From: Lingula anatina | Lineage: Eukaryota > Animalia > Brachiopoda | Length of the DNA stretch: 64,000 nucleotides | Assembly: GCA_051362555.1 (NCBI GenBank) | Contig: CM120646.1 | Location: 20,274,001 to 20,338,000 of the forward strand | Direction of reading: 5' to 3' | Shown: piece after piece, positions 290 through 64,000 of the stretch | Layout: each line of letters starts with the position of its first letter | Numbering within the stretch: position 1 is the stretch's first letter | Program-made: the position numbers and the translations under genes | Notes under the pieces: model-generated | Databases searched by the model: none | Seen by the model: the letters and a program-made list of their open reading frames with translations, nothing else | What the model was told of the DNA's origin: nothing

Positions 290-3200
290 TGTTGATGCTC
301 TTTCCTTGAGAACGTTGAGCTTTGATGTTCCCAACCCATCTATGTAGTAACAAAAGTGTAGACAATGTGGCATGGAAATGTTGATAGGGGGTGACACCAA
401 TTCCGCAACTCCATTGGCAAACCCACAGGCGTCAGCGATCATGACTGATCCTAAACCGACAGATATTGATATCAGTGATTAAATCTACACAGCACTGCAA
501 ATATTAAGCGGATCTTACTTTAAATAATGTTTTGTGTTTGAATGCGGAAAATTTTACATTTTACAAAAACAGTTACCAGTAAATTTTTGCCATTGCAAAA
601 TAGCAAATAAATAAATAAATAATAATAATAATAATAATATACCTCTATAACTCACTTTGTGTGAAACTGCATTTTATACAATCAAACAAAAACACACATC
701 CAGATGCTTCCTTACCTGAACTCTTACACGTAAGATTAGGGTTCGTATGCAGGCTCGGTAGATGATTTTCTGTTCTTGTCCAAGTGAAGCCACTTCCTGC
801 TTTCCTTACTGAGTACCCACAGCTGTACGAATCCTCAAATCCACACCCCACAGAAAAATCTGAAAAACCAATTTACACATTTGATTGCATTTCATCAATA
901 ACATGAATGAATTTTATTAGTTTGAATGTTACAGATTCTTATTTAATGAAAAGATCGCCATTGTTATAAATCATTAATAATATTTTAAAATTGGAAATAC
1001 GATAAGGTAGGTCTGATTTCCTATTAAACACTAATCTATATATAGATTCGAAAATGATACGAACTACAAGGGGTTTCTTCGTCACTCCTGTCGCCACAGT
1101 TATCAACCCCATTGCATAATAAGTGACTGTCAACACACATGCCGTTTGTGCATTGAAATTGACCTTCAGTACAATCTGGAATAGAACAATAAAAAACCAT
1201 ACTGTGGGAAATGCACAGTATCAAAGCTAAGATAAAGTATTCAACGACGCATAAAATGTTCCCGTTTAAACAACAATGCAATTGTGAAGCGAGTAGTCAA
1301 GAGATACATTGTGTATTTTGTTTGGTTATACCATCGTCCTTTCTTTACAATCAATTTTTTTCTCGTTAAATGAGGATATTTTAGTTATCCAACAGGTGCA
1401 GTCCACACTTTGGCTTATTTACCAAAAACTTAGTAAAAAAAAAAAATAAATAAAAAAAATAAAAAATAAAAACACCTTGGCTGAAATCGACAATTCCAGA
1501 ACAAACTGTATCGTCAATGCATTACTATAGACATTCATTCAACCCGAAGATATTTTCAGTAAACCTGAATTCTTGTGAAAAAGGAGTACAGGAATCCATC
1601 ATACCGCAGAAAGGGACATCGCATCTCTCCCCTCTTGTGTCCATGTCGGATGTAAAACACCAAGGTCCATCTTTTCTCAGGTCAGGGTTGCGACAGAAAT
1701 TATTTGCCTGTATCAACGTACCGTCGGGGAAGACGGCAAACTCTCTCAGCTTCTTTAATTGCTGTACGACGCTGTCCGACCTCCACGGCATGCAGGCTTT
1801 CCCACTTTTCGTCCAAGAAACTGTCCCGCTGTATTCCGATCCCACACGTGTACGTATGCATCCATAAACTGCAATGACCCAAATTTTATACTAACTTGGA
1901 ATAAACCCAATATCGCATTAGAGGAGTGTGCACAATGGCGGGTTTAAGGGGGGTGTCAGGGGGGTCCTGACCCCCCCTTCGATTTCCAAAAAAAAAAAAA
2001 AAAAAAAAATCACCCAATGGTCTTGAAATTAGAATTTTGACTGGCTGAATCATAATTCTGAACCTGTCACTCCTAAAAACTTGAACCCCCTTCAAATAAT
2101 CCTACAATCGCCCCTGGTACATAAGGTACGACGACATCCATTATATTTTTATCATGGATCCTAAATTCTTTCAAGCTCACAATAAAGAAAAAATGTCTAT
2201 AAATGGTAGTAGCAAGCTACAGCAATATGAAATATGAATATGGAAAGGCAAACATGCTGTAAACATTTAAATATCTCCACGTTATGTTTCATTCTAGCAA
2301 GCATGAATGTAAATCCTAAAGAGAGGACGGCAATGGAATGTTTGATTTGAAGAAATCTGGGCTTACAACATTTCATCTAAAATATTTAACCAGTAGTTTG
2401 TTTGGATAAAATCGTTCAAAATAAGCTTCCCAAAGATGTTCCTAAAATGAAAATGAGAAAGGAATGAAAGACATTATATAAATTCTACCTATGATGTCAG
2501 TGAAGGTATCAGTATTTTGTAACTTCAAACTGCAATAATCTCTGTTATAGGGTTCTAAAGGTAATTAACAGTAAGTGACCATATAAAAATCATCGTGTAT
2601 CTCCGTACTGTAACTGATTAATTCTTACCCGACACGTCTTGTGCATTGAACTCCACCTGGTTTAAGCTAACATCATCGATGGCAATATCACCCTTTATGC
2701 CATCCCCACGTGTACCTCTGAACACAACACGTGAACGGTGGGCAGTTACACTTGGTATTGCTACTGCCGCTTTCACCCAATCAGGACCTTGATTCCCCTT
2801 GACCTCCACCAACCGCTGCACTAGGAAACCATCTGTCAGTAAGAAGACCTCCAGGGTTCCGATGTCACTGCCCTTCATGTGATGGTAAAATTCCAGGGAA
2901 TGATTAGTGTTACCTTGAAAATCGTAGAGAGGGGAAGACAAGGTCGTGGTACTCCCCTGTTCTCCTCTGTGGGATGTAGTATACATATAATAACCTGGAG
3001 TAGTAATATACTATCATACTGTCATGTAATAATAAACACTGGATTCAGATAAATGTAGTCAAACATCACGATCAATACACAAATGTCTAGAAACCATTTT
3101 TGTAAGACGATTTGAAGAAAAGAGAAATTTTATTTTATTTGTGTATTTATGAATGTTTATCTGTTGAGGGCGAAGTGTCGAAAACGAGCTCATAAATTTA

Positions 3201-6200
3201 AATTGTTTATGCTTACCGGGACAAAAATTCCTGCAGTAGTCCCAAGTGGCACCGTAGGCACCATAAGCACCATTCCAAGCATAGCACCACGGCCCAAAGT
3301 CACGTTCATCGTCAGCACGGCAGTAGTTCTTACTCAAGTGTATATGACGAGGGGAGGGCGACTCATACCAAGGCTTACATGCTGAACCAAACCAAGTGGT
3401 CGCCATCTGGCCTTTGTATTCTTGGTAATTTCCGTCGGCACACTCGCCGCTTTCATTTGCTGTAAAAGCAAACATAATATGTATTTAAGCCTGCAGATGG
3501 GCGGACATGTCAAACATTTGGTAAGAAATAAATTCTATACAACTGTTTGGCGAGAGTGTGTCAGCACCCTGTATCTTAGCTAAAATTGGCCAGGCGTCCA
3601 TTGCAAAATTTCAGCAAAATGGCATTGTAAACCGCACTAAAATGTGTGTAATGTAGTGCGGTATATAAAAATCGAATTTGCTTTAACTCTGCAGAAAGAG
3701 CAAGGTTGCACACTTAATGAATTGATAAGGTCAATGGGAAATGAAGATATATTTTACATATGGTTATAATAATCGATTGAGATGTCGCACCTGGTACCTG
3801 AGGCTGTGAATGGTCAGAATTCGGTCCCGTATTCTCCGTAAATGTTGGCCCATTGTTTCGTATCCATACGAACGACTCAGATGATGACGCAATGGTGTAG
3901 CCACATAAATAGCTGTTTTCAAATGTGCAGTTAACTGATTCCACTGGTAGAATTAAAATCAATTACATTGGTGACATTTACAAGCGTCAACGGTATGGAT
4001 GTCACTTTCTAAATAAATAGCTTGATATATGTTACCACGCACATACAAAATACTTTAATGTGGATAATCACATTCCGTGGATAACATTTGACTACAAGAA
4101 CTATTCACAATTCACCGGATCGAGAATTGCACGGGGATATAAAAGTTCGTTGAGTGATTTTCAATCTTTAGACAGTGTTAAATACGATATCGTACTACTG
4201 AACTTGTATGGCTACAATACGATATCTTGAATTTCACTTGTTTCACAGTTACATGTATGAGTTTCTTCTATATATTTATCGACTGACAATTTTCTCTATA
4301 TATAATTCATAAATTCACAAAGAAGACAATACAATTCCACATACATCACTTTTAGAAACATTAATTCTGACCAGAGTAAAAAAATCTGAGTGAAAGAAAA
4401 CGTTGTTTTAATTGGATAAGATAAATGCGTTAAGGTTTAAGACTGTAAGCATACTAGAATCAATTTCTGGCGACAGCACCCATCATCCTTAAACACGACT
4501 GGTAGCCGTACAATGGTATATTCTAAATATGTACGATATCGAAACTGCGTCTGAATGAATAAAACTATACACATGAAATACGTAACATATAATTCGAAGA
4601 TAAGAAATAAACCAAAAATATAATAGACATGTTTTGATAGGAATACATACCAAAGCTTCAAAATAATTGGAAAAGTGGACAATATATTTTTTATTTACAC
4701 TGAAAGCAAAGGGTCGTCATTTCAGCTGATCCGATTACCTTGTAGGGTATTCAACGCCTTATTTCGCTAAAGCCGTCACTGCGTAGCGTACAGTTGTAAC
4801 AGGAATGGAAGTCCTGGGAATGGAAGTCCGGGCTCCTATATGATTAGTACAGGCTAGGGTTAGTTGGTGTATTGGGGTTAGTGTATGGGACGAATGTTGC
4901 CTGTACAAAGTAATGGGAAGCGGACTACGGTTCCGATGGGCAACCATACGTTGGGCTTAAGTTGGCGCAACGCTGTTGGTTGGCTTTCCAACGTTGGGCC
5001 AATATTGGTCGTGCAACCAACCATGCGTTGGGCCAATGTTCTCTTGCCATGTGGGTTGTTCGGTGAAGCATCACACGACAGAAGGACGTCATTTTGTTGC
5101 AGTGTTTGTTTTGGTTCAGTTTTGGAAAATTACGCCAGTTTTTATAGAAACATTTGGTTTCAGACACTAAAATATTCATACTAAATCGTTTTTCAGCTTT
5201 CCTGTGCCATTGCAATTATTCAGCAATATTACTAAATATTTAGTGCAGCACTCTTATCTAAAACACATAAATTGCATGCAGGCCAATGGTAAACGAAAGT
5301 TGCAAGCAGTCCTGACCTCCACCAAAACAGTTTGAATGCATGAACCTAATTTGACACCCCAAGTAATCAAATGACTACCAAGGGTAATCATCAGGTTGGA
5401 TATGATGATCCTGCAAGGTCATCAAATACAGATTTTGACTACCTGGGCCCTCGTTTTAGGTAAACTCATTTAATGACCCTAAGGTAGTCAATTTTGATGA
5501 CCCTTTGTTATCAGTGTAAGGACTCAGCAAATATGATTTTAATATTTTTACCCCTTTTATTACCTCCAGCTGCATTTTTACTCACCAACTTCTGGACAAA
5601 GATCAAGTTCAAGCCTGACGTTATCGATGGCCATATTGCTAGTTATTCCATCGCCTCGCCGCGCTATGAACTGGACTTCAAATTCCCCAGGTGCAAGTGA
5701 AGCAGAGTGATTCAGCCAATCTAATCCATGGTGGCCCATCAGCATCACCAAGTTGACTTCTGTTTTGTTGGCAAACTTTTGAATCACCCTAAGCTTTCCC
5801 ATGTTGCGTCCGTTCATGTGGTAGCTAAAGTGCAGGCACGTTTCATTGTCTGTGTTGATAATTGGTGAGGAAAGGATACTTTCAGCGCCCACAGTGCCAT
5901 TCTTGCTATCAACGGCCATGAAGGTACCTTATAATTGAAGACGACACGGACTATAATTATGTTTCTATCACATTCGATTCTATTAGTGGAATTCACCGGA
6001 ATATGGTTGGTACCACCAAACTGAGGCTGGTCAACTGGACGTATGGTAATAATTAAGCAGCAGACTTGGAACAGGTATATGGTTTAACATGTGTTTTTGT
6101 ACGAGTAACTGGCTGACAACTGGATACGTTAACAATATTGTCTTGGGGGAATTGTTGTTTTGGGCTTTTGGATTTTTCACCATTTTAGTAATTCAAAATT

Positions 6201-9200
6201 GGGTATAAAACTAAAAATCTTACTTGATGTTGATGATCAGCAGAAGGAGTTTGAAAAAAAAAGACTCATACCAAAATGATTTGATATCCTGTATATGAAA
6301 TGATTGTGAATGGATTGAATTCAAATTGTACCTTGAGTTCCTTCCGACTTTGGCCCCGTACCGGCAAACCCAGAGGAGATGTCATGGGTGTATGTGTACC
6401 AAAAGTTGGCAGGTTTTTGCCAATCCAAAAGATATGGCGAAAATGTGTAGGCAGCCCAAGTAAACTGTGCAGTTCCGTGTCTAACTGTATATCCACATAG
6501 CTTTGGGGTTTCAAACTTGCATTCGCCTCCTTTTTCGTCTGGTGAGAAATGATTTACACTTTATTATATTTAGAAATGACCTTGCTGGTCTGTGAGTCAT
6601 TTACCTTCGAAACTTAAAATTATTTGCCTGCAAGTAAATTATATTAAGGCTAGTGCAAATTAAGAGGAACTTAAGATAACTTTTGACGGTTGGAAAAATC
6701 TTCTTACAGTTTTGTTTGCAAATTAATTCAATTCAGTGCAATGCAATGCAATGCAATGCAATAAAAAAACCAAGAATACTTAAATATTTGAATCAATCGA
6801 ATAATGCCAATTCCATTTAAGTACAATGTGCAGAAGTTTATGTACTCACAGCACTGCTGTCCCTCGTCACTCTCATCAAGACAGTTATTATCGTCGTCAC
6901 ATAGGAAAACTCTATTGATGCATAACCCGTTGTCGCAGCGATATTCGTACCATTTACAATCTATGAAATACAAGGTAAAACTATTGCTTTATAGTATACC
7001 GTCAAGATCTGGTCTACTTATATAACTAGGGGATGTAATCATACTAACAATTTTAAGTTAACCAGTTTTAATTTTGGTGCTACATCTTTTTTATAAAATA
7101 GGTGCAAATTAATTTGATTGGACTTAGGGGTACTTCTGATTTGTGTTGGGTATAGGTAAAAATGTTCGCGTATAAGTTAAAACAATATTTGCTGAGGGAA
7201 TTCTGTGAAACTGCAAGGTTTTTGCTACTGCCTGATCATGAGGCAGGTACTGCTGGTATCGCTTCATAGTTACTTGTTAAAATGGTGACATTAATAGATG
7301 CATCCGCTTGCTGTCATTGGTACTGGTACTGCGTCACAAATTATAATATATATTCAGAGCAATTTACAAACAACATATTAATTAGATATCCCCTTGGTCA
7401 CAACAAGTTTTTTTGTACAACTATGGCATTAATATTCACCAAATAATTAAACTTTACTTTATTATCCTACTTCAGATGGATAGTTTCACTTCTAACGATA
7501 AACAAGAAGCACGGTTCTACATATACTCAAATATGGGTTATTGGGTATTTTATGGATATATAAGGCTAAAGAAATATTTATAATGAACACATATGCACAA
7601 TCGCATTCACAAACTTTAACACCGGCATTCACACACACTAGTAAACGCAGCCATACTCACACACACATATTCACCCAAAGTACATACCTGGAACATCACA
7701 TTTGCCTTCACGAATTGAGATATCATCCAGTGCTTGGTCACCACGGAAACCATCACCACGTGATGCTTCAAACAGAATAACATAGGAAGGGGCTTCTTCA
7801 AATTCCACAGAAAAGGGAATCCATCGGTCTTCGGAAAATTCGGCGCGGGCATGAAATTTCTTCCATCTGCGCATTTCCCAAAGTTTGCGCTTCGGCCTTG
7901 ATTCCTCTTGGACGTAGATGGCCAGGTCGCCTAGGTTAGAGCCGTACGCGTGGTAACTGAAGCGGAGGCATGCTTTGGCATTACGGATTCCCCTCTTGGG
8001 AGAGGTGCGAAGGGTAGTTTTTTCACCAATCACTCCCTTCGAAGACTCTGTGTATATATAAGTGCCTGCAAGAGAAGAAAAGTCGAGTACAGTATCTAGT
8101 CGGGGACTTCATTGAGGAGAGCTATGGTTAATGATTCAATACTTGATCTACAACATTGATCAAAAAGGTTGTCCCACCCCCAGTTTCATGTGCTTTTATT
8201 TATAGATGATCACATCACAGGAGTTAATTGCTATGAATGGTGGTTTTCATTACAGATACCATAACTTACATGATTAATGGTACAGAAAATACAGACTAAC
8301 GGTTAATATCCATATTTGATATTATTTATTCACATTTATTACATGTACCCCCTCAAATCTGATGTTCCACTGTCATTTCAACGGAGGTAAAGAAAGCCCA
8401 TTAAATTAAATTGACACCACCAAATGTCACCAAATTTACACACATTTAACATTAGAGTATGCTCGTTAAAGGTCATGTGTCTATTAGCGTGTGTGTTTAC
8501 CACGTACTGTAATTATCTCCTGTAGACGGCGCCACTGACTTCAACAAGGGTAACAATTCTGTTTTGCGGGATATTGCCCCATGTTTCCAAAAAGCTTGGC
8601 AGAATTGGTTCGGTCTATTTAAAATTTGGTTCTCCTCCGGATTTCGCACTTCAATTCATGTCACGGGTGCTCAGTAGGCTTATTATCTGGATTTAAAGAT
8701 GGTTTCTCCAGCCTCAGAACATTGGCTTTCTGCAAGAAATCACTCACCACATGACAACTGTGTGCAAGTGTGATGTAATGATGAAGCCTGGATCACCCCC
8801 GAAGTCCCTTCTTGCAGATGGAGTGAGGTATCAGTTGAGAATGCTAGGTTCAGTGATCTCAGAACTACCAGAACTTGGTCAACCGTCACTAGGACCAAGC
8901 TGGTTTTGCTGAAGAATCAAGGTATTTCGTGTATGCCTTCGATGGTCAAATTAGGGCCCGTAGACATGTTGCAGAATGCTTTTTGGTAGGTTTGTGCAGG
9001 ATAATATCGCCTGAGGTGTCAGGTCAGTCCATGTTTGGAGAGGATTCCAAGCCCATTATTTCAGTGCATTGTTCTTTCCGGAAAAGATCGATACTTGGAC
9101 AATTCACTGAAATATTCTCAACAAATATCTCACTCCATTTATAAGAGGTGACTTCAGGAATACCGCAGGCGTTATGGTGGAAATGCACTTGCCCACAACT

Positions 9201-12200
9201 CTCGTCTGCTGAGTGATTTGTTGCAGAAACACAATGTTCAGAGGAAGGAGCAACCATCTTTAAGCCCTGTTATTAACCATACTGAACATCTGTGGTATGA
9301 ATTGAAGTGTGTAACGCAAAGGAAAACGTAACTCCTAATAATCTGGACGAACTCCCCCAGGCTCTTTCGGAAGAGTGGGACAATATCCCATAAAACAGAA
9401 TTGTTACCCTTGTTGAAGGCAGGCCGCGCCACCTACAGGAGGTAATTACAGGTACAGTACGTGGTAAACACAAACGCTATTAGACAAGGAGTCTTTAACG
9501 AGCACGTCCTAATGCTAAATTAGTGAAAATTTGGTGACACTTGGTGGTGTCATTTCAATTTAATGGACATTTCTTTGCCTCTGTGAAAGTCACAGTGAAG
9601 CGTCGGATTTGAGGGGGTACTCAGTACATGTAATAAATTAATTAATGGTATTAAATTTTGATATCTTCACTGCTAGTTTGTATTTTCTGTAACACTAATC
9701 ATGTTAGTTATGGTATCTGGAATGAAAATCACTATCTATAACAAAGTTTTCCTGTGATGTGATCGTTTATAAATAAAAGCACATGATAGTGAAGGAGGGA
9801 CAACCTTTTTGACCAATGTTGTATATACAGACATTGTATATAAATGCTCTTACAATCATTGGACAAAAGGAGAGGCCTACCCTCTGGAGATTGTTTGGTA
9901 GCATCAATAAACGGCCCGGTCTCTGAAGAAGGTGTCGAGCCTGAGTTGAGTTTCCAGGTATAATCATTCTCCCCAGGGGTGATATGGTAAGAACACGGCG
10001 TTCCATCCTCGAAATCACAGTTTTTGAATTCTGTGGAGAAACAGGTATAAAAGGCCATATTTATCTTACATAAGCAATTCCAAAGGAACAATTCCAATCC
10101 AGTAAACGAGTGATCCCATTCTTGACTCGGGTAAATTAATACGAACAATGGGTCCATTATAAGTTACATGTACGTTTTCTTTAGTTCTGTGAGGCTATAT
10201 TTGTTTGACAAAGAAATGATACCACAATCTTAAAACCCTACAATTTATGTTATCTATTTGATTGTGCACTAATTAACATTTCTGGAGCTGGTATTTTGAT
10301 CATTGTGCCCTCATGTCTCCTTAGACAAATTCTAGTCTTACCAGTGCACGTGGTGTACGTAGAAACAGTGCAAATACTTGGCACTTAATTCACTAGCTCT
10401 GGCAACAATACCTCATATCGATTAGTATAGTCATTCACATTTATGCCACAGTAGAAATGTGCAGATATCATATGTAAAAAAAAAAAAAAAAAGGTGTATC
10501 ATCAGTTTGAGCTTAATTAAAAGTATCAATTTTATTATACACATTTCATCCAAATATAAATGAAGGTTGTTTGAATCCATCGGGCTTCCCAACAGAAGGG
10601 CAGGTACAAGTATATTTGTACATGATATACAGACAGTCTTAGTGTAGGCTTATGTGGGGTACAGGACAGGTTTCCGTTTAATCTACAGTATCGAGAATGT
10701 CTGCAACGTTCTTTATTGAAATCAGATAGGGAAAATATTTTCCTTTGGACACCAAAACCACGTTTGATCACGCGTTATTTAGATTGTGCGTTGGCTAAAC
10801 GTGTATCTGTATTTTTGTTCAATATGAAATTTAAAGAGTAAAGATTCTCACCACATTGCTTCTCATCTTCTCCGTTTTTACAGTCCATTTTTCCGTCACA
10901 CATATCCATTTTGCTAATGCAGACATCACACTGGAACTCGTGGTCACGGCAAGCTAAAAGACAAATAAATGCACATTTATCATTTTGCTATATTTATGAC
11001 CACACTTACCACACTTTCTCAGGTAGCTTCCGCATGGTGAATGGAGCCGAGATTTATTAACTGTACCCCCGCAGGGACGACATGTGGGGAGGCGTGTGAG
11101 AGACGGAGAGACTATTAACAGATTAGGCGTTTTTTTCTTTTATGCACGCCCGCTATATTTAGATCCAGGATTTGTAAATCCTGGCTCAACTCGTTGTGAA
11201 TGCGATCTTATATGCTACTATAATTAATGTGTTGAAAAAAGAGTCAACCGAAAACCTGATGTTTGACTTGAATTGTGGAGTTTTCATTCTCAGTGCTGCC
11301 TATCTTGGAATCCACCGTCCATGTTGTGTGTTTAACATTGATCATAGCAATGTAGGCGTTCCCTATTAATACCCTTTGCAGCAATTTTTAAGCAAGTTAA
11401 ATTTTCAGTTCATAAGCAAAAATAACCCCATAAAACCGATGAGACGGAAGCGTTGTTACTGAAAACTATTGGCAGCCATTTGACTTTGTCATATCCAGAA
11501 ATGATCGATAATGATATATTTAAAAAAAAAAAAAAAACTTACGACATATCGGTACTTCACATGGTTCGCATACAGCATCCTTTTCTACAGTGAAGCACCA
11601 TGGACTTGTTGAATAACGACTCGGATTACGACAAAAGTTCGAAGCATCTTGAATCTTTTCGTCCGGAAACATGCTTGCGTCTCTCATATTATACTGACGG
11701 ACAGATGGTGAATCCCAACGCTGACACTTCTTTCCAGACCTGGTGAAGTCACGGTGACCTTGGTAGTAAGGCCCGGATGCTTTGACCTTGCAGTCCCGTT
11801 CTGTCATAAAAGAATGTATGGGAATTACAAGCCGTACATGTTTTTTAAAACCCTGAAAAAAAAGTGAACCAGTTGGTTTAGCAGCCACATAAAATAAATC
11901 ACGCCAGTAAGTTACAGTAGAAATAAGTTGGTCATTGGATGGCATGATGAGCAGATCATCGGGATGAATAGCTGATCAATGCTTGTATTTGTTTGATATA
12001 ATATAAATTTATAATTTATCTGATACTTAAGAATGATGTGAATTTTTCTTCAGTCAACAGCTAATATTGAGATAGGTTTTACCTCCAATATTTCTTCTCT
12101 GACTTATCTGATACTTAAATTGGAGAATTAAGTGTGGCCCCACCCGCCGCCCATATATTTACAAAACAAATGACAAAAAGTATATAATAATAATAATAAT

Positions 12201-15200
12201 AATAATAATTATAATAATAATAATGACTGATGACCTAGATCCGCCAGTGATAAGCAATTGCAATATTACATAGATAACTCACCAAGATTAGAACACACGT
12301 CAATATACACGTCATCTATTGCTATAGTGCTGCGCGGGCCTCTTCCTCCATGTCCCTCTATAATAACCTGTTGGTAGATTTAAAATGAAATAATTAATTT
12401 AATCAAATAGTGTATGCAATGTATACATTACATTTAATCCAAAGAAATAAATATAAATAAAATAAGATGGTTTATGTCAACTAGGTTTATCAAAGCCGTT
12501 GACCGTGTGACTTAAACATTTAGTGGTAAAATATTTTACTTGATGTTTTGTTAAGCATGATTTCTTGTTATAGAAGGTATATTCCGACCATTCACATAAT
12601 GTACACTGTACGTACCTCATAAAGTCCAGGCTGTATCTTTCCAAACGCCCTCTGCCATCCAAGACCCTGGTTGCGCTTTCTCCTCCATACCTCTTCCTTG
12701 GTGCCATCGGGAGACTGGGCGTATATTCTGAGATGCCCCACCTCTTCTCCGAACATATGATAAAACAGATGGATACAGCGCGGGTCTGTTGACTGGATCG
12801 TAGGCGAACGGAGACGTGCTATCCTATTCGGCTCGTTCAGGTACAGAAAATGGCCTGTAAGATCAACGAGTTTGAGTAGTCAAAAAGCAATTCTCTGCTA
12901 GACTACTGGAAGAAAAACAATTTCTGTATCAGTGCTGACATGTATATTAAAATACTTTGGAGATTGTGGTATTTGCCAGGTAAAGATACATGCACCAATT
13001 TTCCCTGCGATATAGGCGTACCTTTGCCAGAGGTGTGGTCAGCCAGTGGGCCAGTCCACATGTCCAGTGTGCTCCGACCTTGACCTCTCTCCCAACCCGC
13101 ATCGTCTTGCAGGAAATTGCACAGGTCCTTGTCAAAGTCACACTCCGTCGGCGTTTCATCTAAAGTAGAAAAAAAGTGGAAAACACACGGTGGATCAAAA
13201 ACCCATTTGGTAATTTCAGTCATTAGGGTAGTACATTTTAATTATTGACAATCCAAATTACTCAGATATCTTTGTTCTCGTAACGACTAGTTAAACGCAT
13301 CAGAAAAAAAATTGATCCATTTTGTTGAATGGCGTGTGTGAACGTGCTCACCGTCACAACGAATTCGATCATAGTAGTCCTCTTTCTGACTGAACACAAG
13401 ATCCACTCCTTCGGTTCTTTCGTTCAGAGAAGTTATCTTGCATTCTTTTAAGTCATTATCATAGACGAATGAGTTGCAATTCCACTCAGAAAATCGGAGG
13501 CAAGCTCGTTCGCAAACACAAGATGGCACACGTTTTATAATTTTATAATTGATGTCGTCGCCACGGCGCTTGAGTGTCCTGTCCGCCGTGATTTTGAAAC
13601 GGTCTCTACATCCGGGACCTGGGAAAGGAAGTCAGAAAAAGAAAACAAATTTGAATAAACCAAACACTTTTCGTGTCGCAAAAGACTGGTGTAATTGAAA
13701 GCTTTCCAAATAACTTAACTAGGTTTAATGCACATAATCTATCAGTTAGGACCTTCCTATATAAAAGGATTGCTTGCTTTTTTCACAGTTGAAAAAGAAA
13801 CTGCGTTAAGTACATAATTCAGCTTGTGTTGCAAAAAATGCAAATCGTGATACAATTTTTATATACAATAGACCGATATACGTAATACAATGACAATAAC
13901 AAAGAAAAAATATATTTGATATCAAAAATGTGTAAAATGACTGTAAATGACTCTCTCCGTCTATAAGATTATTCTATTTTTGACACTTCATTAATGACAT
14001 AAAGGAGCGGTTTCATTACATTAATAGTCTACCATGTACATCGAGTGATTTACCATGCACAATAATATACTTGTTGACATATTTACTGATGGACTCACTT
14101 TTGTAGTCGTCTTTCGTTTGCCAGAACTTTGTGTAGAAATCATGGATGCTGTCATACAGTCCCAAGTCAAATGTCGCCGTAGTTCTGATATTTAAAAAAA
14201 TGTAGAAAAGTATAAATAGAAACCATCGATGTCAAACATAACCCATGAGTAACGTCTATGCAGGTACGTTTGCGATGGTGCGTGCGTGCATAAACATAGT
14301 CAGTTCATGTATTTACGTACATGCGCAGGCACGTATTTGCAAATGTCAGTATATGCATATTCGTGCTTGTATTTGCTGAACCTTCAACATTGGGCTAGCG
14401 GTATATGCATTTCATTCAGTGTCACACTGCATATTGGGAAGTCGAGGACCAAAAAGAAATTCTTGAAAAATGGTGTACCTCAAGGGTCTGCACAAATACT
14501 TTTCCCCATCTACACCTCTGACTTACCTGAAACAGCTAGTGAACAGTACATCTATGTTGATGACATCGCCTTCATGACCTCTGGAACCTCAGTGTCTGGT
14601 CTCAATGATGTACTCAGTCAGGATCTCACAGACACCGATCAGTTCTTTAATGATTGGAGGCTAAAGATGAACAAGACCAAGGCAGTCAGCAGCCTATTCC
14701 ATCTGGTCAATAACTTAGTAACCAGGAATTTGAAGTGAGATGTGATGACACCGTCATACCTTTCGAAAAGTTTCCGAAGTACCTTGGCATGACATTGGAT
14801 CGGAGCCTACAAGGCTCACATCAACAAGGTCGCTGCAAAGGTTGGGGCGAAAAACACCATCTTGAAGAGGCTGGCAGGAACTACCTGGGGGGGGGGGGCA
14901 AACTTTCCCACCCTGAGAACTACCTCCCTTGCCCTGGCTTACTCCACTGCAGAATATTGCGCCCCTGTGTGGTGCAGGAGTAGCCATACAAATACAATTG
15001 ATACAGCCCTAAACAATTATCAGCATGAGGCTTATCACAGGATGTCTGAGATCAACACCAAAACCTTATCTCCCAGTACTACACGGCATACTTCCCCCAG
15101 ATATCAGACAGGATCAACGCTGTCTCCAACTGGCCAACAGAGCACATGAGCCAGGACATCTATTGTTCCAGCGACTCCGGCAAGATGAGGAATATACTAG

Positions 15201-17894
15201 GCTTTCCTCAAGTGCTCCACTGATTCCATACTTGCGAAAGTTAGAGGAGAACCAAAATGAAATGTCGACAGAGACATGGGAAATGGTGAAATGGCAGGAG
15301 GAATGGGCTGTCCTTCAAAATGGCAGACTGTATGACTTCATTCCTGAAGTGAGCACCCGACCACCTGGCCATGAGCTGGGTCGCCTATCATGGACTCGAC
15401 TGAACCGCATCAGAACAGGTCAAGGCCGTTTCCGTGCTAACATGTTTGAATGGGGGCTCTGTCAATATCCAGCATGCAAGTATAATCCTTTGACTTTTGA
15501 TTCATGAGTGTACATTACTTGGATGAAAATGAAAAGAGGCAAAATACCCACGCACATACATGTAGGATCAGTTAAAGAACTATTTATCAATTCACAAATC
15601 ATCTGGCAACCGATAACAAACAAATCAAATTGGTCATTTCATTACAGTGACAATCAATGATTAATATTCAACTCTTGATTCAAGTTAACTGAAAAAGAAG
15701 GCAATTACCGCAAATGTCCCTCACCTCAAATGATTCTGGTTGCATATTGTCACCGCGGGGAAGTCTAGGGACTCACTGTGTATCACTTCTACATTGACCA
15801 CCTTGGGGTTGGTCAAGAAGTAGGCAATTCTGAACCCGGCGACAGTGCAAAAGAATATCGTAGCGGAAAGCACAATAAATGTCCAGATTATTCTGAAAAT
15901 ATTTAATGAAGAGGACATGGTAAGGTTCCATCAGCATTTAAGTCAGAATTAAAATCTTAGTCGACTTTGACCAAAGAAAAATCAGTAGTCTAAATAAATT
16001 AAAGGAGGTTATAGGCGTAGGGCTGAGGTAGATTACGTTTCCATTTGATTGGGCGAGTACATGTACCTTCTTCTTTGTAAGAAGAATTATTCAAATAGAG
16101 TATGCTCTATTCCCTCACATACTCAATACTCACTGCAACGTCTTTAAAGGTACATGCGAACCGAACATCGGTGAAGTGTGGATTCCCAGTAAACCACTTA
16201 ATTCCATCTAAACCACTTCTACTAGTTTCTTATACCACTCAAATAAATTTGACATGCCAAGGGATAAACTGAATAGATCAATTGATCAGCCATAAAAGAG
16301 CTTTAGACTGCTCCTTTCTCTAGATTTTTGGTCGGAAATTGAGCCTACTTTAGTGACCTACTGTTCTGCCCCATTGACATACAGCATAGAATGCTAGCAG
16401 AAAAATCCGTTCAAACATCATTTTTGGGAAAAATTAAACAGTGCCGTTTGGTAATTCTCTTAGTTATACTATTTGAAACTATATGCTGGCATTTGGTCGG
16501 TTTTTGTGGCAAAATATTAGCTTTGTATGCATCTTTAACAGAAAGATGTATTTGGCTTATGCCCCGATACAGGGTCATGTCCGCGGTGATATTAGTAGTG
16601 TAAACATATTGCCATCCCTGTGACAACTGCATTAATCACTACAATGTCAAAGAAATAACATTTTTCCTGAAATCTATTTGATTGTAGCTAGTGATTTCGT
16701 TGCATATAAACTCTTTTGTAATTTTTTCTCCATTGTTAAGCTTTGTCTCGTCTTTATTTTCATGGCAACGCGTCAGCAACTGTACTTTATGTGTTTATTT
16801 GTATATGGTGATGGAGCGTGAAATTAAGAGACCATTTCCAGGGACTATTGTGCTAAGTTTGGATCGAACGAGGGGATTCTCGCTCAATTGCAATTAACTT
16901 GGGCGGCTTAGATGTCTGTCACGCCTGCTGAGGCTGATATGGGGTAATTAACTATCGTTTAGCAGCTTTAGTTGGCTTCCCAGACATCTTAGCCGCTTGT
17001 GCTGAAAGCAGTTTAGCGAGGGACCCCGTGGAGTTGGACCGATCCTGTTAGATCGATCTAGGGATGGGAACCCAATCTAGCTATACATCATCATATTTAT
17101 GTACTTACGGTTCGCTATAATATCATCAAATTGATTCTTTACAAATCGTGTGTGTAGCCTAAACGCTCTTAAATCTAATGACAATCATCGTGTGATGCAG
17201 ATAAAATTAATTCTCCCCCGTGACATTTGTCTATGCCAATATCCAGACAACAGAAAAGATTTGATGGCAAAACTGTCATCTTCTTACGAGTTCATCAATA
17301 AAATGTTGACACAATTAGACCGGCATTATCAGGTATTTAGGTACCCTGTAGTTAGGGTTACAGTGCCTACTCTCTTTAGATTTCCATTTTATCTATGTAC
17401 TTATATATTTGGTGTGTGTGTGTGTTTGTGTGATTCATGTACCTGACTGAAGTGATGTTGGTAAGTGAATTTAACAAAACGAACCGACCAGACTCCTTCT
17501 CTCATTCTCTCTCTCTCTCTCCTTGTGTATGTGGAATTCAAGGTATTGCACATAAAAGAAATTTCCCAGGTTATTTCAGCTGCTTTAATCAGCTGTGAGT
17601 AATTATCAACATATCGTTCAAGTGCACCGATACGTGAAATCCTCATTAAAACACACCCTTCATCTAACTCTACATTTATTTAGCCAGATATTTTTCCTGA
17701 AGAAAACTGTTAAACTAGGCACGTGCATGTACAAATTTAACGTAACAAACAAAGAGGTTCCACCCTATATCTAACTCTGTTTTATCCAAGCGGCCGATTT
17801 GGACAAGCTGGCTTTGTACATCATTATATTGGCAATACCAATGCCTTGTTACTTTGACAGCCGCCCATTATGACATGGTATGTGTTGCAATATT

Positions 17895-17958
<64 letters not shown>

Positions 17959-20900
17959 CAATTAAATTTTTTGTTTCAAAATGTTATGAAATGCTCTTTT
18001 TCATTCAATGTTTGTGAACACGGAATTGTTGGTAGATTTAGAAACGAAGGCGTTCACTGGCTAATGTCGTACGTGGAATCAGAGGTGTTACAATCATGCA
18101 TACCGAAAATTAGGAAGAACGATCTCTCCAAGAACGATCCCTTGCGAGTTTAAGGCAAGTTTCAATTTTCACTTTTAGCATATGCCAGATAATCCACCTA
18201 CAGGACACATGGCGACTCTCCCCCATGCATAGGCATCTCACAGAGGGAAGTTTGGAATAACCCCCACCCTCCCGATTTAGATTCAGTATAAGTAAGTACC
18301 CGATTGCTTGTACTCATAACGGCCTTAAAAATTCTTAGGATAGGTTCAACCAGTGTATAATGTACTAGTAATGGCCTGGAGGGTGGGTAGCCACTGTAGG
18401 ACGCTGGTGATGACGCCACTTCACACATGTACAGGTATTGCATTTATCAATAAAATACGTTCATCAAAATGGAATTCAAGGTATTGCACTTAAAACAAAT
18501 TTCCCAAGGGATGTGAGCTGCTTTAATCAGTTGTGAGTAATTATCAACATATCGTTCAAATGCACCGATACATGAAATCCGCATTAAAACACACCCTTCT
18601 TCTGACTCTACATTTATTTAGCCAAATATTTTTTCCTGACGAAAACTGTTAAACTAGGCACGTGCATGTACAAATTAAACGTAACTGGAAACAAAAAAAA
18701 CTCCACACTATATCTAACTCTGCTTTATCCAAGCGACCCATTTGGACAAGCTGACTTTGCACATCATTATCTTGGCAATACCAATGCCCTGTTACTTTGA
18801 CAGCCGCCCATTATGGCATGGTATGTGTTGCACAAAACAGGCGTGACATATCCTCTTCGTTTGTTGTAAGCCCACATTGCAGTCTTCGTTCATTAGCTTC
18901 ATTTACAAGCTAAGGTTCGTAGCATAGAACAATGTTCCATTGTATCCTTGTAGATACTGGGCCTGCTGTGATCATGAACTAGAGGAAGAAGGCAACTCAT
19001 CCTTCAAATCAACTCTTAATTGGAGGGAGGAGAGTATAGGTATGCCTCAGAAATCGTCTTTTCCTTGTACAGTATTAGAGGTTGAAATTCATGTTTGTTG
19101 TCAAAAGTTTGTTGCAGTCTTGTTAGTTAATAAACAATGTTCAAAGAGATTTTAGCAGATTTTTATTAGAATAACCAACAAAATGCCATGTTAGAGATTA
19201 GCCAATGAACGCCTTCGTTTCTAAGTCTACCCACAATTCCGTGTTCACGAACACTGAATGAAAAAAATATTGCATAAAAAATGAAACAGCATTAAATGCA
19301 AAAAAAAAAAAACAACAACTTATTGAATGAAAAAGTGACACGATATTGAATGAAAAAATATTACATGAAAAAACGAAACGTAGACAAAATTGAATGGAAA
19401 AAAAGTTATTGCATAAAAAATGAAACAACATTGATTGGAAAAGAGAATATTGCATAAAATTTTGATACATTAAAAAACAAAACTTTAAATTGATTGAAAT
19501 ATATATTTATTGCCATAGCCCAAAAAAAGTTAAACGAGCTTGTGAGTTTTGGTGAAAGAGATATAATATTTTACATCCATTTACTCCGATGTTTCTTATC
19601 GCATTTGACAACTATGAGGAGTGTTGTCTTAACAAAATAAACCATTAGCTGGAGCTGTGAAATCTACTCTGTTTAATACCAGACGTATACATTGGACGAC
19701 CATTCCCAGGAGATGGATTGCGGCCATTTTCACTTAGCCAAATCGGCACATGCATCGCACATTTCATCAATGCCCGTATAATTGTGGTGTTTAATATAAC
19801 AATACCTCTCCCTGTTATTGATTGTTAAAGGATGATAGAGCGTGTTCCCTGTTAATAGATGATTTAACACAGTCGGAGAAGTAATTGATCTGGTGGCAAG
19901 CTTACAATATCGGGTTATAGTTTGGCATGTATTTCCCAAATACACATTTTTTATTCGAATTTACTTCTACGCCATGTCTAGCTAACTTAGTTTATGATAC
20001 TTATATGCATTGCATCAAAATTTATTAGATTATCTTTTTATTAGTTAACTAATTACTTTTGTTTATTTAAGATTCTCTATCTATGCAAGGAATGTACGTC
20101 GCACGTATTTTTACTTAAAGGAATAATAACTCTTCGTTTCGGCCAAAAAATGAATTTTCCTGGAGTAAACAACAATTTCCACATACTTACCAATGGTTAA
20201 TGAATCCATTTTTACATTCAAAGTTAGTCCCTGTTTTTTTTCTAAAAAGTTTGGTTTTTTGTTAAAATCTCTTAAGAGATTTTAACAGAGTATAGCCATC
20301 AATGGAGGTCACGTGGTCTAAAGACAAGCTCAGTTATCAGAATAATAGCTATAACTACCGTTTTTGTGGTAAAACAGAATATATTATATTTCTATGAGTT
20401 ATTCACAATGTTTTTAATGTGAAATATAGATCTCATACGAAGAGTCATTATCCCTTTAACCAGTGCAATGGCAGAATGTAAAACATGATGTATTATAAAC
20501 GAAATTAATAATATAATATGGTTTAACCCCATAGAGCCCGTCACCGCATATGTGCAGTTCAATTATTCAATTATTTATTTATTTATTTATTATTTATTTA
20601 CTAAAAACCACCTTTAAAAGATGAGTAAAATAATAAATACATATATTTAATAACACAATATATAAGAACAGTAATTATCGCTTACGCCCCCCCCCCCCAA
20701 AAAAAAGAAGAAAAAAAAGTCAGCCACATTTTGCACGTCGAAATTTGTTTCCTTCCACAGCCTTGTTGAAACCATGTTCCCCCTTTTTTTACAACTGGGA
20801 AAAATGACCGCATTTTGCAACTGCAACGTATTTGCAACCAGGATTTTTTCTAAGTCCCTGAAACAGTTTGAAGTACGAAACAGGTAGAATTGGAATGGGG

Positions 20901-21546
20901 ACGGGTTTGCCTAACAAAATGTTTATTAACGTTTCTACTTCCTTACTCTAATGGTTTGGGAATTTACAATGTGAAATAAATTATATATTTTTGTCCGCTC
21001 TAGGGGAAGCCTGACCAGTTTCAGCGTACCTAGCCGAAGCAAACCCGCCCCACTCTAATGCATATCGTACTTCAAACTGTTTCAGGGACTTAGAAAAAAA
21101 ATCCTGGTTGCAAAATGCGTTGCAGTTGCAAAATGCATTTTCGCGATTTCCTTCGGTTGCAAATGCGTTGCAGTTGCAAAATACATTCTGTTGCAAAATG
21201 CGCCTCTACAGGCGGGTGTATAAAACAAACGTCGCTTACCTGCGCAGTGAATAACGGGTCCTGAGCGTGATATACCGAACACCATGGAAGGTCGTCTCCT
21301 GGGTGAAATCATACAGCAACCGTCTCCAACTTGGACCACCCTCCTCTCGTGCATCTGGGAAAAGGATAAAGATTCCAACCAATTGACTTGTTATACAACA
21401 ATAACCTTTAGCACCCCCTAACAAAACACTAGTGCATTAAATGTGCTCTTCGCGTTGTAGGTTAAACGAAAGATATATCTCAAGATGAGAATTTTTTCAA
21501 ACATTTCTGGTAATCTTTATACAATATACTCACTATCGTCTGACAT
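290..21546 (-). CDS. Copy A: tandem paralogue of the modular DEG/ENaC gene; first 22 exons visible, 3' part runs off the left edge
   Basis: Exons 21534-21546, 21240-21354, 15725-15892, 14099-14184, 13352-13618, 13022-13159, 12616-12854, 12283-12367, 11543-11800, 10852-10953, 9881-10030, 7688-8065, 6850-6960, 6332-6538, 5586-5927, 3791-3943, 3217-3459, 2629-2994, 1605-1868, 1065-1175, 716-859, 290-450. Each has the same length and phase as the matching copy B exon, and I found no in-frame stops. Confidence 0.85.
4698..5517. mobile_element. TA-flanked TIR element present in both paralogues (copy B ~45939-47142)
   Basis: CACTGAAAGCAAAGGGTCGTCA ... TGATGACCCTTTGTTATCAGTG inverted termini; interior rich in TTGG..CCAA palindromes. 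Confidence 0.6.
8151..9821. mobile_element. Non-autonomous TA-flanked DNA transposon (Tc1/mariner-type) with ~700-bp inverted arms, copy A intron 11
   Basis: Termini CAACATTG(A/G)TCAAAAAGGTTGTCCC are inverted, with TA on both sides. Copy B has the empty site (gatcTAtatacag, ~50078-50090). Internal segments also pair, e.g. 8501-8580 with 9381-9465 and 8701-8770 with 9181-9265. Confidence 0.88.
14410..15510 (+). mobile_element. Degenerate, 5'-truncated non-LTR retrotransposon (RT and C-terminal region; Ingi/Vingi-like) in copy A intron 3
   Basis: Frameshifted ORFs with [12 protein letters not shown] (degenerate YADD), [20 protein letters not shown] and [10 protein letters not shown]. Absent from the matching copy B intron. 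The clade call is tentative. Confidence 0.85.
15725..15892 (-). CDS. Copy A exon 3: TM1 and FPAVTICN motif
   Basis: [57 protein letters not shown]. Confidence 0.95.
16148..16534. mobile_element. TTAA-flanked MITE (Kolobok/piggyBac-type target site); second copy at ~31724-32104
   Basis: TTAA on both sides; empty TTAA site in copy B at ~58036; a long, clearly similar dispersed copy sits in copy B intron 37. Confidence 0.75.
16828..17078. mobile_element. ~250-bp MITE, possibly PIF/Harbinger-type; inverted copy at ~24744-25002 and a diverged relative at ~57634-57848
   Basis: Reverse-complement match along its length to 24744-25002; absent from the equivalent copy B position (~58285). Confidence 0.65.
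17530..18830 (+). repeat. ~360-bp direct duplication inside copy A intron 2 (17530-17890 and 18470-18830)
   Basis: Both begin ggaattcaaggtattgcac and end atggtatgtgttgca; copy B has one copy at ~58755-59070. Confidence 0.85.
17897..17955. repeat. (TA)n microsatellite
   Basis: About 29 perfect TA units. Confidence 0.95.
20119..20455. mobile_element. TTAA-flanked MITE of a second family; another copy at 62092-62402
   Basis: Terminal inverted repeats AGGAATAATAACTCTTCGT / ACGAAGAGTCATTATCCCT, TTAA duplication, empty site in copy B at ~60135. Confidence 0.78.
21240..21354 (-). CDS. Copy A exon 2: HG-motif exon
   Basis: [38 protein letters not shown], the same peptide as copy B. Confidence 0.92.
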
Positions 21547-22266
21547 TTCAACCAGTGAAATAATCCCTCTATATCATCCAACTGTTTGTCAAATTATTTT
21601 GATGGCGTATAAATTGCACCAGTGTCATTCATAATTGATGATCTAAAGGACAAACGCAGGTATTATCAATTTGCTGTCTCACACTAACTTATCCCCTGGG
21701 TCATCGCCTTCACAAAACATCATTTCACACCGAAAATAAAAGCCTTTTAAAATGGCTGTCGTTTTGATGCCACAATTGGAGCGGTACAGTATTTTTAGAG
21801 TTGTCTCTATCTCTCTAGTATCTGAATGTATTACGGACGCATTAAGCTTACGCCTACTTTACGTCTGATATCTGCATTGATAACGAGTTCTGAACATGTG
21901 TTTAAAAGTCATAAGATCTGTTGTTTAAATATATGCTTTAATCATTGTAGCGTATAAAAAGAATACACGAAGGAAACGTGACTGGTTATTTTGATTCATA
22001 ATTCTGAATGATATGCATCCAAATATGGTCAAAGAGTGAAAGTAGTCGACCGCGAGAAGGTTTTAAAACACTGATTGTCTAAATCTATTTATATGGAACT
22101 CACAAAGAATTGATACACGCAAAATTGTTTGAGGCTGTAGATATATTTCTTGACGTTTACATTAAAAGAAAAGTTTGGCGTAGTCAAACGACTTTTTATG
22201 GCGACAACAATCCCCAGAGCTGATTTACGCACATGTGCATTCTGCACATGTTCAATTCTCCCTAAA

Positions 22267-28856: not shown

Positions 28857-29519
28857 TTAGGCAAACGGAGTTTCGAATGTATCTTTTGCAAAATTTTCTT
28901 TCATTTCAAACTCATCCGGGTGCTGGCTGTTTCTGCGATCCACTTTGGCTGTTCGTTTTAGGATAAAGTTATAGATAATCATATCCAAAAGTTCAAATAA
29001 TGTGATGACGCTTGCGCCCAAAAGAAGACCCATTAATCCACCAATTTCACCTAAAACAGATACAGTGACAATACAGAGACCCTGGGAGTGTTGGATTGGG
29101 TTAAAAAAGCTGAGTTAAGAGGTAAGATACGAATCGTAAGAAAGATATTCAAATACATCATTTAAAATTTTCAGCTGGCCTGCTTTCTATTAAATGAAAT
29201 TGCCTACATTCCGCGTGAGATTTTGATGAAAAATTTATGGTGCAGTGTGTGGAAAAAGAGAAGACAAAATAAAGATGGCGCGCAACTCAACAAAATAAAG
29301 GCCAAGGTTGTATTGCACTCGTATCTTTTGTTATTCGTGCCTTGTCTATTTTAAACGAGTATATATGGGATTCAGTCCTAGAGATACGGACTCAGCCGAC
29401 TATTTCCGAAACAAATCCGGAACTTACTAAGTAATGACCCTTCGTTTATGTCTCGCATTTGCTCGATTCTTTGGTAGCTCAGCTGGGCAAAATAGACGTC
29501 CAGGCTGAGGAAATTATTT
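28857..29519 (-). CDS. Copy B exons 39-40: beta11-beta12, TM2 with GAS selectivity filter, short C-terminal tail
   Basis: [20 protein letters not shown]...[25 protein letters not shown], compared with ASIC1 [23 protein letters not shown]; TAA stop at 28857-28859. Confidence 0.95.
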
Positions 29520-31433
29520 CTGAAATCAACAATAGTCTAGATTCCAATAATTTCAATGTAATCATCGACCCGGTACCTTGCGACATGCCATGAATATAAT
29601 GGCAATAGTAGTTTACATATACCTGTTCTCATCTAGGGCAAATTTATGTAAATATTAACTGCATGTATTTATATCTGATTGGTGATCAAAGGAATCAGAG
29701 TGATATGCGCACATTTTTTACCATTTAAACAAACACTCCGGTTCTGCATTTTAACACCAAAATGTGTGCCACTTAAATGAAGTTAAAAGAAAAGTGGTTC
29801 GTTTAATTCACAAACACGTCAACTACAAGTTGGATGTTTGGATAGATTGGATTAGGATTAGAGATTCAAAATATTCTAGACATTGCAATTGATAATACAC
29901 CAGACCTACTTACGCCACAAATGTTGCGTCCAGTGAATTCCCCTTTAAATACATTTGCAGTCGCGTCTGAAACTCAGTAAAATATTGCAATAAGAGGCCG
30001 CGCTGGTCGCTGAGATCGGCACCTAGTTGCTTGGACATAGTCCGAACTGGTTCTAAGTAAGCTTCAACGTGTTCCTGAAGATAGCTGTCTACATATATAA
30101 AATTTTCTGCTGGAGGGGCGCCTGACGTGTTGCTTTGACCAAACAGATTGATGTCCGGAACGTACCGCTTCCATATCTCCATTGCCCACAACTGTCCTAA
30201 ACACGATCCTTTTCTTCCGGCAGCAGAGAAAAACGTATCAAACTGCTGACATTTCTCAGCAATGTTTTTGTAGGATTGCGCTACTTTTTCTTGAAGATCA
30301 TTAAGTTCTTTCGATTTTCGCCCCTCCAGCCCCTTTGCAACGTCATAAATTTTGTTAATGCTCTCCTTTGCATATGCGATTTCATCAGGGGTGGACATTG
30401 CGGCTATTTCAGTTTTGGTAATCTCTCCCGTCAGGTAGTGTGCCAGCATCATGTCAGTATGTGACCTGGCATGTGAAACTATAAGAAGAGAGTCGATATA
30501 CTCGTCAATTATCAATTTCGCACCCGAATATGAACTGGGGTTTACTAATTCCAAAGAAGATAAAGCGCTTAGCGTGGAATTGTACAGATTAAGACAACGC
30601 CCGAACATTTCAATCTCACTGACAAGATTTTTATCGTCCAAAACAATGTTAATATTCGACTTGTTTGAATGTTCTAGTGCATATTTGCATTTTTCCTCAA
30701 CATATACCCTTGATTGCATGCACGGAATGTTGTCAGAGCCGAAGAAAAAGTCGGGCAAGTCTCTAGCGTTCTTCTCGGCACTGGGTTCAAGAAACACAGA
30801 CGGAATGGTGTCAGAACCGAAGAAAAAGTCGGGCAAGTCTATTGCGTTCTTCTCGGCACTGGGTTCCAGAAACACAGACATGCTTTCGTTGTAAAGATTG
30901 TAGAAATTCTGAACTTCCACTTTTGCGTTCGATCTTTTGTCGTTAGAGAAGGCGTCTGAACCACCCAATAATATAAATAAGTTACCTGGCAAGTGCCCCA
31001 GAGCTTCTGTTAACTTTAGGACATAGGGGTGAACCTCGACGACGTACCGAAATCGGTATGGCGATACAAATTCGGTAATCAATCGGGCGTCTTTTCTATA
31101 CATATCAGTGAGATACCTTTTTGAATTTTCGATCCTTTGGGTAACATACTTGTGGTCGATGGGTACTTCTAATATATCGTGAAGCACACTTAGGAATTTG
31201 GTATAACTTTTGTTCAGCTCGTGCAGCAATTCGTAAACTTCGGTGAACCGCTCGGGGTCAACCCGGTGTGCTCCCTCTCTGGCGTTTAAGAATGTTTCAT
31301 TGAGAACAGAAATATTTCCACGGAGTACACGGTCGACGTTGATGTCGGAAATTTTTCCATATGATATTACAGGTTCGTAGAACGTGGTGATGCAAGGCTG
31401 GATACACTGAGCCTGTTTGTGTGTACGTTGCTC

Positions 31434-34218: not shown

Positions 34219-34256
<38 letters not shown>

Positions 34257-37754: not shown

Positions 37755-37807
<53 letters not shown>

Positions 37808-41889: not shown

Positions 41890-41920
<31 letters not shown>

Positions 41921-63754: not shown

Positions 63755-64000
63755 CTGAAAATGATAGCAAGTTATTAATTATAATACGAGACATTGCTCC
63801 TTAGTTCAGAGAGAAAAATACAGATACTAAAGTACAATGTACTAGTAGAAAAATATCGCTGCATAGTAATAATGCATACATCAATTTCTTCTTTTTAAGA
63901 ACGTTTATATCTTAAATTACAGATTATATCAAATAAAGTAATATGAATAATAAGCCCTGACCAAAGGTCTTGTTTTGATAAACTCGGGAAACTAACCATT

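Follow-up and report, generated by a model that had tools for sequence, protein, structure and literature searches.

A 64,000-nucleotide stretch of the genome of the brachiopod Lingula anatina (GenBank assembly GCA_051362555.1, contig CM120646.1, positions 20,274,001 to 20,338,000; hereafter the window) contains two tandem paralogous genes, copy A and copy B. Both are predicted, from their sequences, to encode subunits of DEG/ENaC sodium channels with an array of modules inserted in the finger domain. That these are two real, open tandem paralogues of such design is nearly certain, and the array and the channel very probably form a single fused protein. As a whole, the explanation we somewhat favor is that of tandem paralogues whose finger array binds outside proteins or matrix and opens the pore via the finger. 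A duplicate alone would be ordinary; its value is as support for a giant fused gene that truly exists and is under selection, and is no annotation chimera.

Organization of the two copies

The copy B model comprises 40 exons on the minus strand (from 61093 to 28857) and forms a single open frame of 2,793 codons. All 22 exons of copy A present in the window (from 21546 to 290, minus strand) map without gaps onto the first 22 exons of copy B with equal length and phase; they are flanked by AG and GT (GT-AG introns), contain no stop codons and encode 1,367 visible amino acids. The coding sequences of these exons are 94.0% identical at the nucleotide level and 90.8% at the amino acid level, and the aligned introns are 88% identical (Jukes-Cantor divergence 0.13). 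Self-comparison of the whole window revealed a collinear direct repeat (192–22168 versus 41550–61901) with blocks 70%–91% identical. Homology extends 5′ of the start codon (21547–22168 versus 61094–61901) and ends about 620 bp upstream. The junction of exon 4 with exon 5, which encodes the PAN domain, has phase 1 and GT-AG boundaries at the DNA level in both copies. A preliminary description, made from the sequence letters, had reported the equal exons, the alignable introns and about 600 bp of upstream sequence, and the shared junction, and all of these were found again. It had also stated that the copy-specific transposons all lie in introns. All 22 copy-specific blocks of at least 100 bp are indeed non-exonic, but two of them are upstream and 20 intronic; few were checked as transposons, one had a reverse transcriptase match, and the others can be called copy-specific blocks only. 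Copy A alone carries a local duplication of about 360 bp of intron 2 (17532–17889 and 18470–18832, 91% identical). The features are listed in Table 1.

Table 1. Positions of the two genes, their parts and associated elements in the window
Feature	Position	Strand	Remarks
Copy A, exons 1–22	290..21546	-	1,367 aa visible, runs on left of base 1; allele XP_013407589.2, 1065/1067
A exons 1–8	21546-21534, 21354-21240, 15892-15725, 14184-14099, 13618-13352, 13159-13022, 12854-12616, 12367-12283	-	
A exons 9–15	11800-11543, 10953-10852, 10030-9881, 8065-7688, 6960-6850, 6538-6332, 5927-5586	-	
A exons 16–22	3943-3791, 3459-3217, 2994-2629, 1868-1605, 1175-1065, 859-716, 450-290	-	
A exons 1–2: ATG and intracellular N-terminus, HG motif	21240..21546	-	Translation
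A exon 3: TM1, beta1–3 (FPAVTICN)	15725..15892	-	B counterpart Pfam ASC, E = 6e-12; 94.6% nucleotide identity
A exons 4 (finger helix alpha1) and 5 (PAN), fusion junction in phase 1	13352..14184	-	PAN_1, E = 1e-5
A exon 12: hotspot of divergence in the C-terminal half of MAM2	7688..8065	-	23.5 nonsynonymous versus 3.5 synonymous
A exons 16–18: MAM4 N-half, nested kringle, MAM4 C-half	2629..3943	-	Matches of B counterparts
A upstream region, homologous to B 61094–61901	21547..22168	-	Likely duplicated promoter/5′ untranslated region
Copy B, complete, 40 exons, 2,793 aa	28857..61093	-	RefSeq fragments XP_023929951-3 match 98%–99%
B exons 5–30: finger-inserted module array, aa 128–1949	35953..55986	-	Pfam matches
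B exons 32–37: DEG/ENaC core (alpha3, palm, beta-ball, thumb)	32227..34741	-	
B exon 38: thumb end, beta10, ~480-aa helical insert between knuckle helices alpha6/alpha7	29914..31432	-	
B exons 39–40: beta11–12, TM2 with GAS filter, C-tail, stop	28857..29519	-	
Element of 1.67 kb in intron 11, A only, with terminal inverted repeats	8151..9821	.	High copy number; very high DNA depth
A-only broken LINE-like fragment, intron 3	14392..15529	+	Copy-specific block
B-only broken LINE, intron 10	50507..52793	-	RVT_1, E = 1e-14

Architecture of the predicted channel subunits

The copy B protein begins with an HG motif, the first transmembrane helix (TM1), strands beta1–3 and finger helix alpha1 (exons 1–4), followed by the modules (exons 5–30) and then by alpha3, the palm, the thumb, a 505-aa exon, beta11–12 and the second transmembrane helix (TM2) with GAS. 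The array thus lies between finger helices alpha1 and alpha3: alpha1 aligns to BASIC, and the segment after the array to ASIC alpha3. It spans about 1,820 residues and includes 19 modules, namely one PAN, six MAM, five kringle (KR) and seven LDLa, in the order PAN-MAM-KR-LDLa-MAM-LDLa-MAM-MAM(KR)-KR-LDLa-MAM-KR-LDLa-KR-LDLa-MAM-LDLa-LDLa, where one kringle is nested in MAM4 between the two MAM4 exons. The PAN exon has a weak alignment with the HGF N domain, and the EGF family was absent from the Pfam matches. Symmetric phase 1-1 exons are a signature of exon shuffling, and 23 of the 27 exons from 5 to 31 in copy B have this property.

The predicted channel matched the Pfam family ASC (PF00858) with E = 1e-62 and 213 bits against a gathering score of 23.6. 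The hydropathy profile of copy B has peaks only near residues 43 and 2742, which corresponds to two transmembrane helices. The HG motif before TM1 and the G/GAS filter of TM2, which we take to be the marks of the DEG/ENaC family, are present as HG in both copies and as GG..GAS in copy B and the RefSeq allele of copy A. When the last 897 residues of copy B were modelled with AlphaFold2 (mean predicted local distance difference test score 69.7; core mostly 82–96, insert 35–95), the result had an ASIC fold, with the insert forming long helices between two knuckle helices, and Foldseek matched this modelled C-terminus to ASIC1/ASIC1a with E = 2e-18. For the knuckle insert itself, neither a Pfam family nor a usable structural match in the Atlas was found (best template modelling score 0.30 by query). 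A 78-bp tandem duplication (26 amino acids; 30722–30879) is located in the knuckle insert of copy B; it is also present in the RefSeq allele of B and missing from that of A.

Duplication and divergence of the copies

A search with exon 38 of copy B among 6,950 candidates found one longer protein, XP_013407589.2 of Lingula anatina. It is identical to copy A at 1,065 of 1,067 aligned residues and shows 89.5% identity to copy B over 2,464 residues (10.5% differing). No stop interrupts this model, which includes the remaining modules of A, the channel core, the knuckle insert and TM2; in this allele, the concern of the preliminary description that copy A might lack the C-terminal channel exons was not borne out. 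Three other models of the same cluster (XP_023929951-3) represent copy B in pieces, matching it at 99.1% over 1,662 residues, at 98.2% over 882 residues and with two differences in the first 148 residues; XP_023929952.1 differs from B at 15 of 1,662 residues and from A at 10%. The longest contig given for each of the four models is the same, with 825,861 bp. Since the RefSeq models differ from the alleles of the window, A and B are both found in another sequence that is not identical to it, with an allelic distance of 0.2%–2% versus 10% between paralogues.

Sequencing reads were placed on copy A, and the depth and expression of copy B are known only indirectly. In DNA run X1, contigs of 370–881 bp matched A with 0–1 differences at a depth of 92–102x, a heterozygous bubble within A (55/105) had an alternative allele that was not of the B type, and contigs with B-type letters occurred at about 140–156x. 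The last value probably reflects merged shared and specific words, although a further copy is possible. With two A alleles and the B-type contigs, a single sample contains at least three versions. Copies A and B are therefore real tandem paralogues, both open, located on one haplotype and diverged far above the allelic level, and not uncollapsed haplotypes. The duplicate pair proposed in the preliminary description is thus real, but the terms tandem array and small gene family were overstated because no third copy was found: two copies are present in the window, and the four of five cluster members examined were all A or B.

Synonymous divergence (dS) between the copies, 0.130, equals the intron divergence of 0.130, and nonsynonymous divergence (dN) is 0.044, giving a dN/dS of 0.34 (Fisher P = 2e-15). 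Small indels number 34 in 7,269 aligned intron bp and zero in 4,101 exon bp (19 expected, P = 5e-9), and none of 500 neutral simulations stayed free of stops. The duplication is under purifying selection, in agreement with the earlier proposal. Exon 12 (MAM2) contains 23.5 nonsynonymous versus 3.5 synonymous differences, a skew relative to the other exons (P = 1e-4 to 8e-4). Positive selection on this exon was considered and rejected: its dN/dS is 2.2, yet the excess of dN over dS is not significant (P = 0.16–0.35). The unevenness of dS among exons (P = 0.007) means that gene conversion could contribute to the exon 12 pattern.

Gene conversion between the copies is possible around exon 5–intron 7 (12616–13618 versus 54983–55986), where exon 5 has no synonymous differences and intron 7 is 97.7% identical. 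The RefSeq allele of B has the A-type residue at position 303.

The identity between the A allele and copy B is 213/227 residues in the core, 67/69 in the TM2 region, 374/446 in the knuckle insert and 31/42 in the finger linker. Such a pattern of a near-fixed pore and diverging surfaces fits and would allow the mixed trimers envisaged earlier, but does not show them.

Relatives and age of the architecture

Relatives were analyzed among the best 150 matches to the C-terminal half of the protein, of which 136 were measurable for the knuckle insert and 117 for the finger. The insert of about 480 residues was present in 49 of the 136, the named ones being molluscs, nemerteans and annelids. A large finger was found in three of the 117: Capitella ELU13130.1, Intoshia A3Q56_01374 and the sequence P0131. 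A second Capitella copy, ELU13132.1, has a gene number near-adjacent to that of ELU13130.1; both list a 353,511-bp contig and are 80% identical over the region searched. Five sequences (Lingula, two of Capitella, Intoshia and P0131) share a colinear alpha1-PAN-MAM-kringle-LDLa cassette, which leave-one-out hidden Markov model profiles recovered in four of four cases (E = 1e-37 to 1e-53). The best match in copy B is the first cassette, followed by weaker internal repeats. Since annelid and orthonectid proteins carry this cassette at the equivalent place, the fusion is probably old, and its view as a local chimera had to be abandoned.

For the phylogeny, coverage filtering retained 132 of 163 sequences; 63 were used under LG+G4 and 34 under C20. 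In the core-only tree, Lingula, Capitella, Intoshia and two partial Owenia models grouped together with support of 84/81 under LG+G4, and FastTree gave the same grouping a value of 0.94, both without P0131. The gene was duplicated independently in Lingula and in Capitella; the two copies of each are sisters with 98–100 support. The GAS filter is kept in five of the six modular or partial homologues compared, and Intoshia has GLS. The Intoshia model P0005, with this GLS filter, lacks a recognizable TM1, which may be a gene-model error. A close relative from Owenia (P0006/P0155) is modelled without TM1 and carries a LamG-like domain before the core; this may be a different or truncated set of finger modules.

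No description of this modular architecture was found in the open literature (supplements and subscription papers were outside the scope), and supplementary files of family phylogenies may include these proteins unremarked. No paper was found on the modular proteins of Capitella, Intoshia and P0131, and a literature search on the insert of about 480 residues likewise found none. The insert marks a widespread lophotrochozoan DEG/ENaC group without a Pfam model and deserves a study of its own.

Transcripts, gene models and alternative explanations

A number of points weigh against the interpretation as a whole. No exonic reads were found on copy A in any of the three RNA runs used (of nine; 6%, 6% and 25% of each; tissue unspecified), where reads fell on repeats alone and none crossed the exon 4–5 junction, so that neither expression nor any splice junction was observed. 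In RefSeq, both copies are interrupted between exons 5 and 6, and copy B a second time after exon 29; the homologues are likewise all gene predictions. Copy A left of base 1 is seen only through the RefSeq allele and not the window's own allele. The sample of run X1 could be a pool, and depth taken from contigs is only a rough guide. The C20 mixture leaves the modular group unresolved, and P0131 is unplaced under both LG+G4 and C20; because the core grouping is open under C20, a single origin rests on the cassette rather than the tree. In the RefSeq model of A, exon 16 (3791–3943, minus strand; the N-half of MAM4) is skipped in frame, due to alternative splicing or a model error. Because the two Lingula genes are present in databases as split or truncated models, family surveys likely miss them.

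At the gene level, collinear introns with 88% identity would be expected of two haplotypes of a single gene, and marine invertebrates can be highly polymorphic. This is nevertheless extremely improbable given the recurrence of both copies in the RefSeq models, the gap between allelic and paralogue distances, the presence of two A alleles with B-type contigs in X1, where the A-specific depth equals the summed bubble depth, and the end of homology about 620 bp upstream of the start codon. The zero exonic RNA reads in three runs could point to copy A being a young silent gene decaying to a pseudogene, which is very unlikely: its dN/dS is 0.34, and neither a stop nor an indel has appeared at a neutral divergence of 0.13. 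Moreover, reads of copy B would also land on the most conserved exons (97%–98% identical) and none did, so the RNA blank is not specific to A. It could also be supposed that the module exons are mostly skipped or belong to a separate nested gene, the working channel being a plain DEG/ENaC of the long type. Exon 4 ends and exons 31 and 32 start in phase 1, so that splicing of 4 to 31 or 4 to 32 is in frame, skipping would preserve the frame for 23 of 27 exons, RefSeq splits the gene, and most long-type relatives have a finger of about 34 residues, a large one being as rare as noted above. However, introns 4–5 contain no signal-peptide start exon common to both copies (one candidate, in B only), the models of Capitella P0024 and of P0131 are continuous from TM1 into the cassette, and the RefSeq model of A connects the array with the channel. 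We consider such a plain channel improbable.

The function of the array also allows other explanations. In ENaC, furin sites flank an inhibitory tract in the finger. The Lingula array could similarly act as a pro-region that inhibits the channel until proteolysis removes it and the channel opens, comparable to the GRIP domain of ENaC. It is placed in the finger, where ENaC has protease sites according to part of a published account (PMC11026163), and two R-x-K-R motifs (residues 320 and 597) are shared by A and B. However, both motifs are inside MAM domains rather than flanking the array, and nineteen conserved binding modules seem excessive for a cleavable plug; this explanation is unlikely. 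Hardly better is the prospect that the protein is mainly an adhesion or endocytic receptor or scaffold, with conduction vestigial or requiring plain partner subunits. The array resembles MAM/LDLa receptor proteins, after which RefSeq names a fragment of B, and the pH screen in one part of a study of C. elegans channels recorded no significant current for EGAS and DEL-10 homomers (PMC10424705). A mere receptor is doubtful in view of the HG and GG/GAS pore residues and the TM2 region, which are the most conserved between the copies, and of the GAS filter retained in five of the six modular or partial homologues compared, the exception being Intoshia.

The favored explanation, a channel opened through its finger array, would involve the following steps. 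The array would have entered once, by phase-1 exon shuffling before the brachiopod-annelid split, and then grown in Lingula by repeated MAM-kringle-LDLa. All exons would be spliced into a single mRNA, and three subunits would assemble into a Na+ channel topped with three arrays and as many helical stalks from the knuckles. Binding of extracellular proteins or matrix to the array, or tension, would move the finger, thumb and pore in the way that FMRFamide acts on FaNaC. After the duplication, the pore would have been fixed while the binding surfaces diverged, providing two tunings and possibly mixed trimers. We give gating of a sodium channel by a tether or macromolecule an even prospect. A bolder and tentative proposal, which we hold less probable, is that these genes represent an undescribed, Cambrian-age spiralian class of receptor channels, with a finger tether or ligand array of up to 19 domains, in which skippable exons and independent duplications would yield combinatorial homo- and heterotrimers gated by proteins or force. 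If true, this would be a single-gene version of the tethered mechanosensor model, retained even in the reduced parasite Intoshia. The proposed matrix tethering of DEG/ENaC channels depends on separate proteins, which are hard to reconstitute. With a candidate tether built in, and with two natural variants whose pores are nearly identical but whose surfaces differ, tether gating and subunit mixing could be tested directly by deletions and swaps.

Mobile elements and other open frames

The fragment in intron 3 of copy A is presumably related to long interspersed nuclear elements (LINEs), judging from its motifs. In run X18, a part of it (14956–15482) attracted reads with loose ends, at about 69x in each direction, and is transcribed from another locus. 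Two elements with inverted repeats lie between the copies (22270–23072 and 25225–26875), the second with perfect 34-bp terminal repeats. Upstream of copy B, an open frame of 292 codons with coiled-coil character (62925–63800, minus strand) had no Pfam family above the cut-off and is possibly part of a mobile element. No further host gene was found among the plus-strand open reading frames of the window, which contained antisense frames and repeat fragments only.

Comparison with known channels

[quoted passage not shown] In contrast to ASIC and BASIC, the Lingula protein is about five times longer, with about 1,820 residues of finger modules and about 480 residues of knuckle helix. At the wrist position after a conserved proline, which we take to be equivalent to H73 of ASIC, chicken ASIC1 has His, and copies A and B have Lys; the position of the ASIC palm lysine K211 aligns to Arg in B. 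The wrist histidine H73 is linked to proton gating of ASIC in part of one report (PMC10507113), and its replacement by Lys makes ASIC-type proton gating unlikely.

The long DEG/ENaCs of lophotrochozoans (Haliotis, Pecten, Lineus, Tubulanus and Ruditapes), 830–1,060 residues in length, have the same knuckle insert of about 480 residues, but their finger of about 34 residues is without modules; one is named 'del-10-like', which is an automatic label only. Both the finger cassette and the insert are shared with Capitella ELU13130.1/ELU13132.1, Intoshia A3Q56_01374 and P0131. The arrays of these database predictions are shorter than in Lingula, with one kringle, and Capitella adds CUB; the shortest homologue, of the P0131 type, has 1,369 residues. 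The closest precedent is the small EGAS family of C. elegans, in which adhesion-type modules are likewise joined to a DEG/ENaC domain; compared by published description, they have EGF instead of the PAN, MAM, kringle and LDLa of Lingula. A section of one study reports EGAS-1 to -4 (EGF and ASC) as differentially expressed in IL2 sensory neuron subtypes and as putative mechanoreceptors (PMC9478639). The finger is the gating corner of the family, according to the part of a review covering the FaNaC peptide pocket, the ENaC protease sites and the proposed matrix tethers (PMC11026163); FaNaC and ENaC bear short helical elaborations at this corner, while the Lingula proteins are predicted to carry an array of 19 domains.

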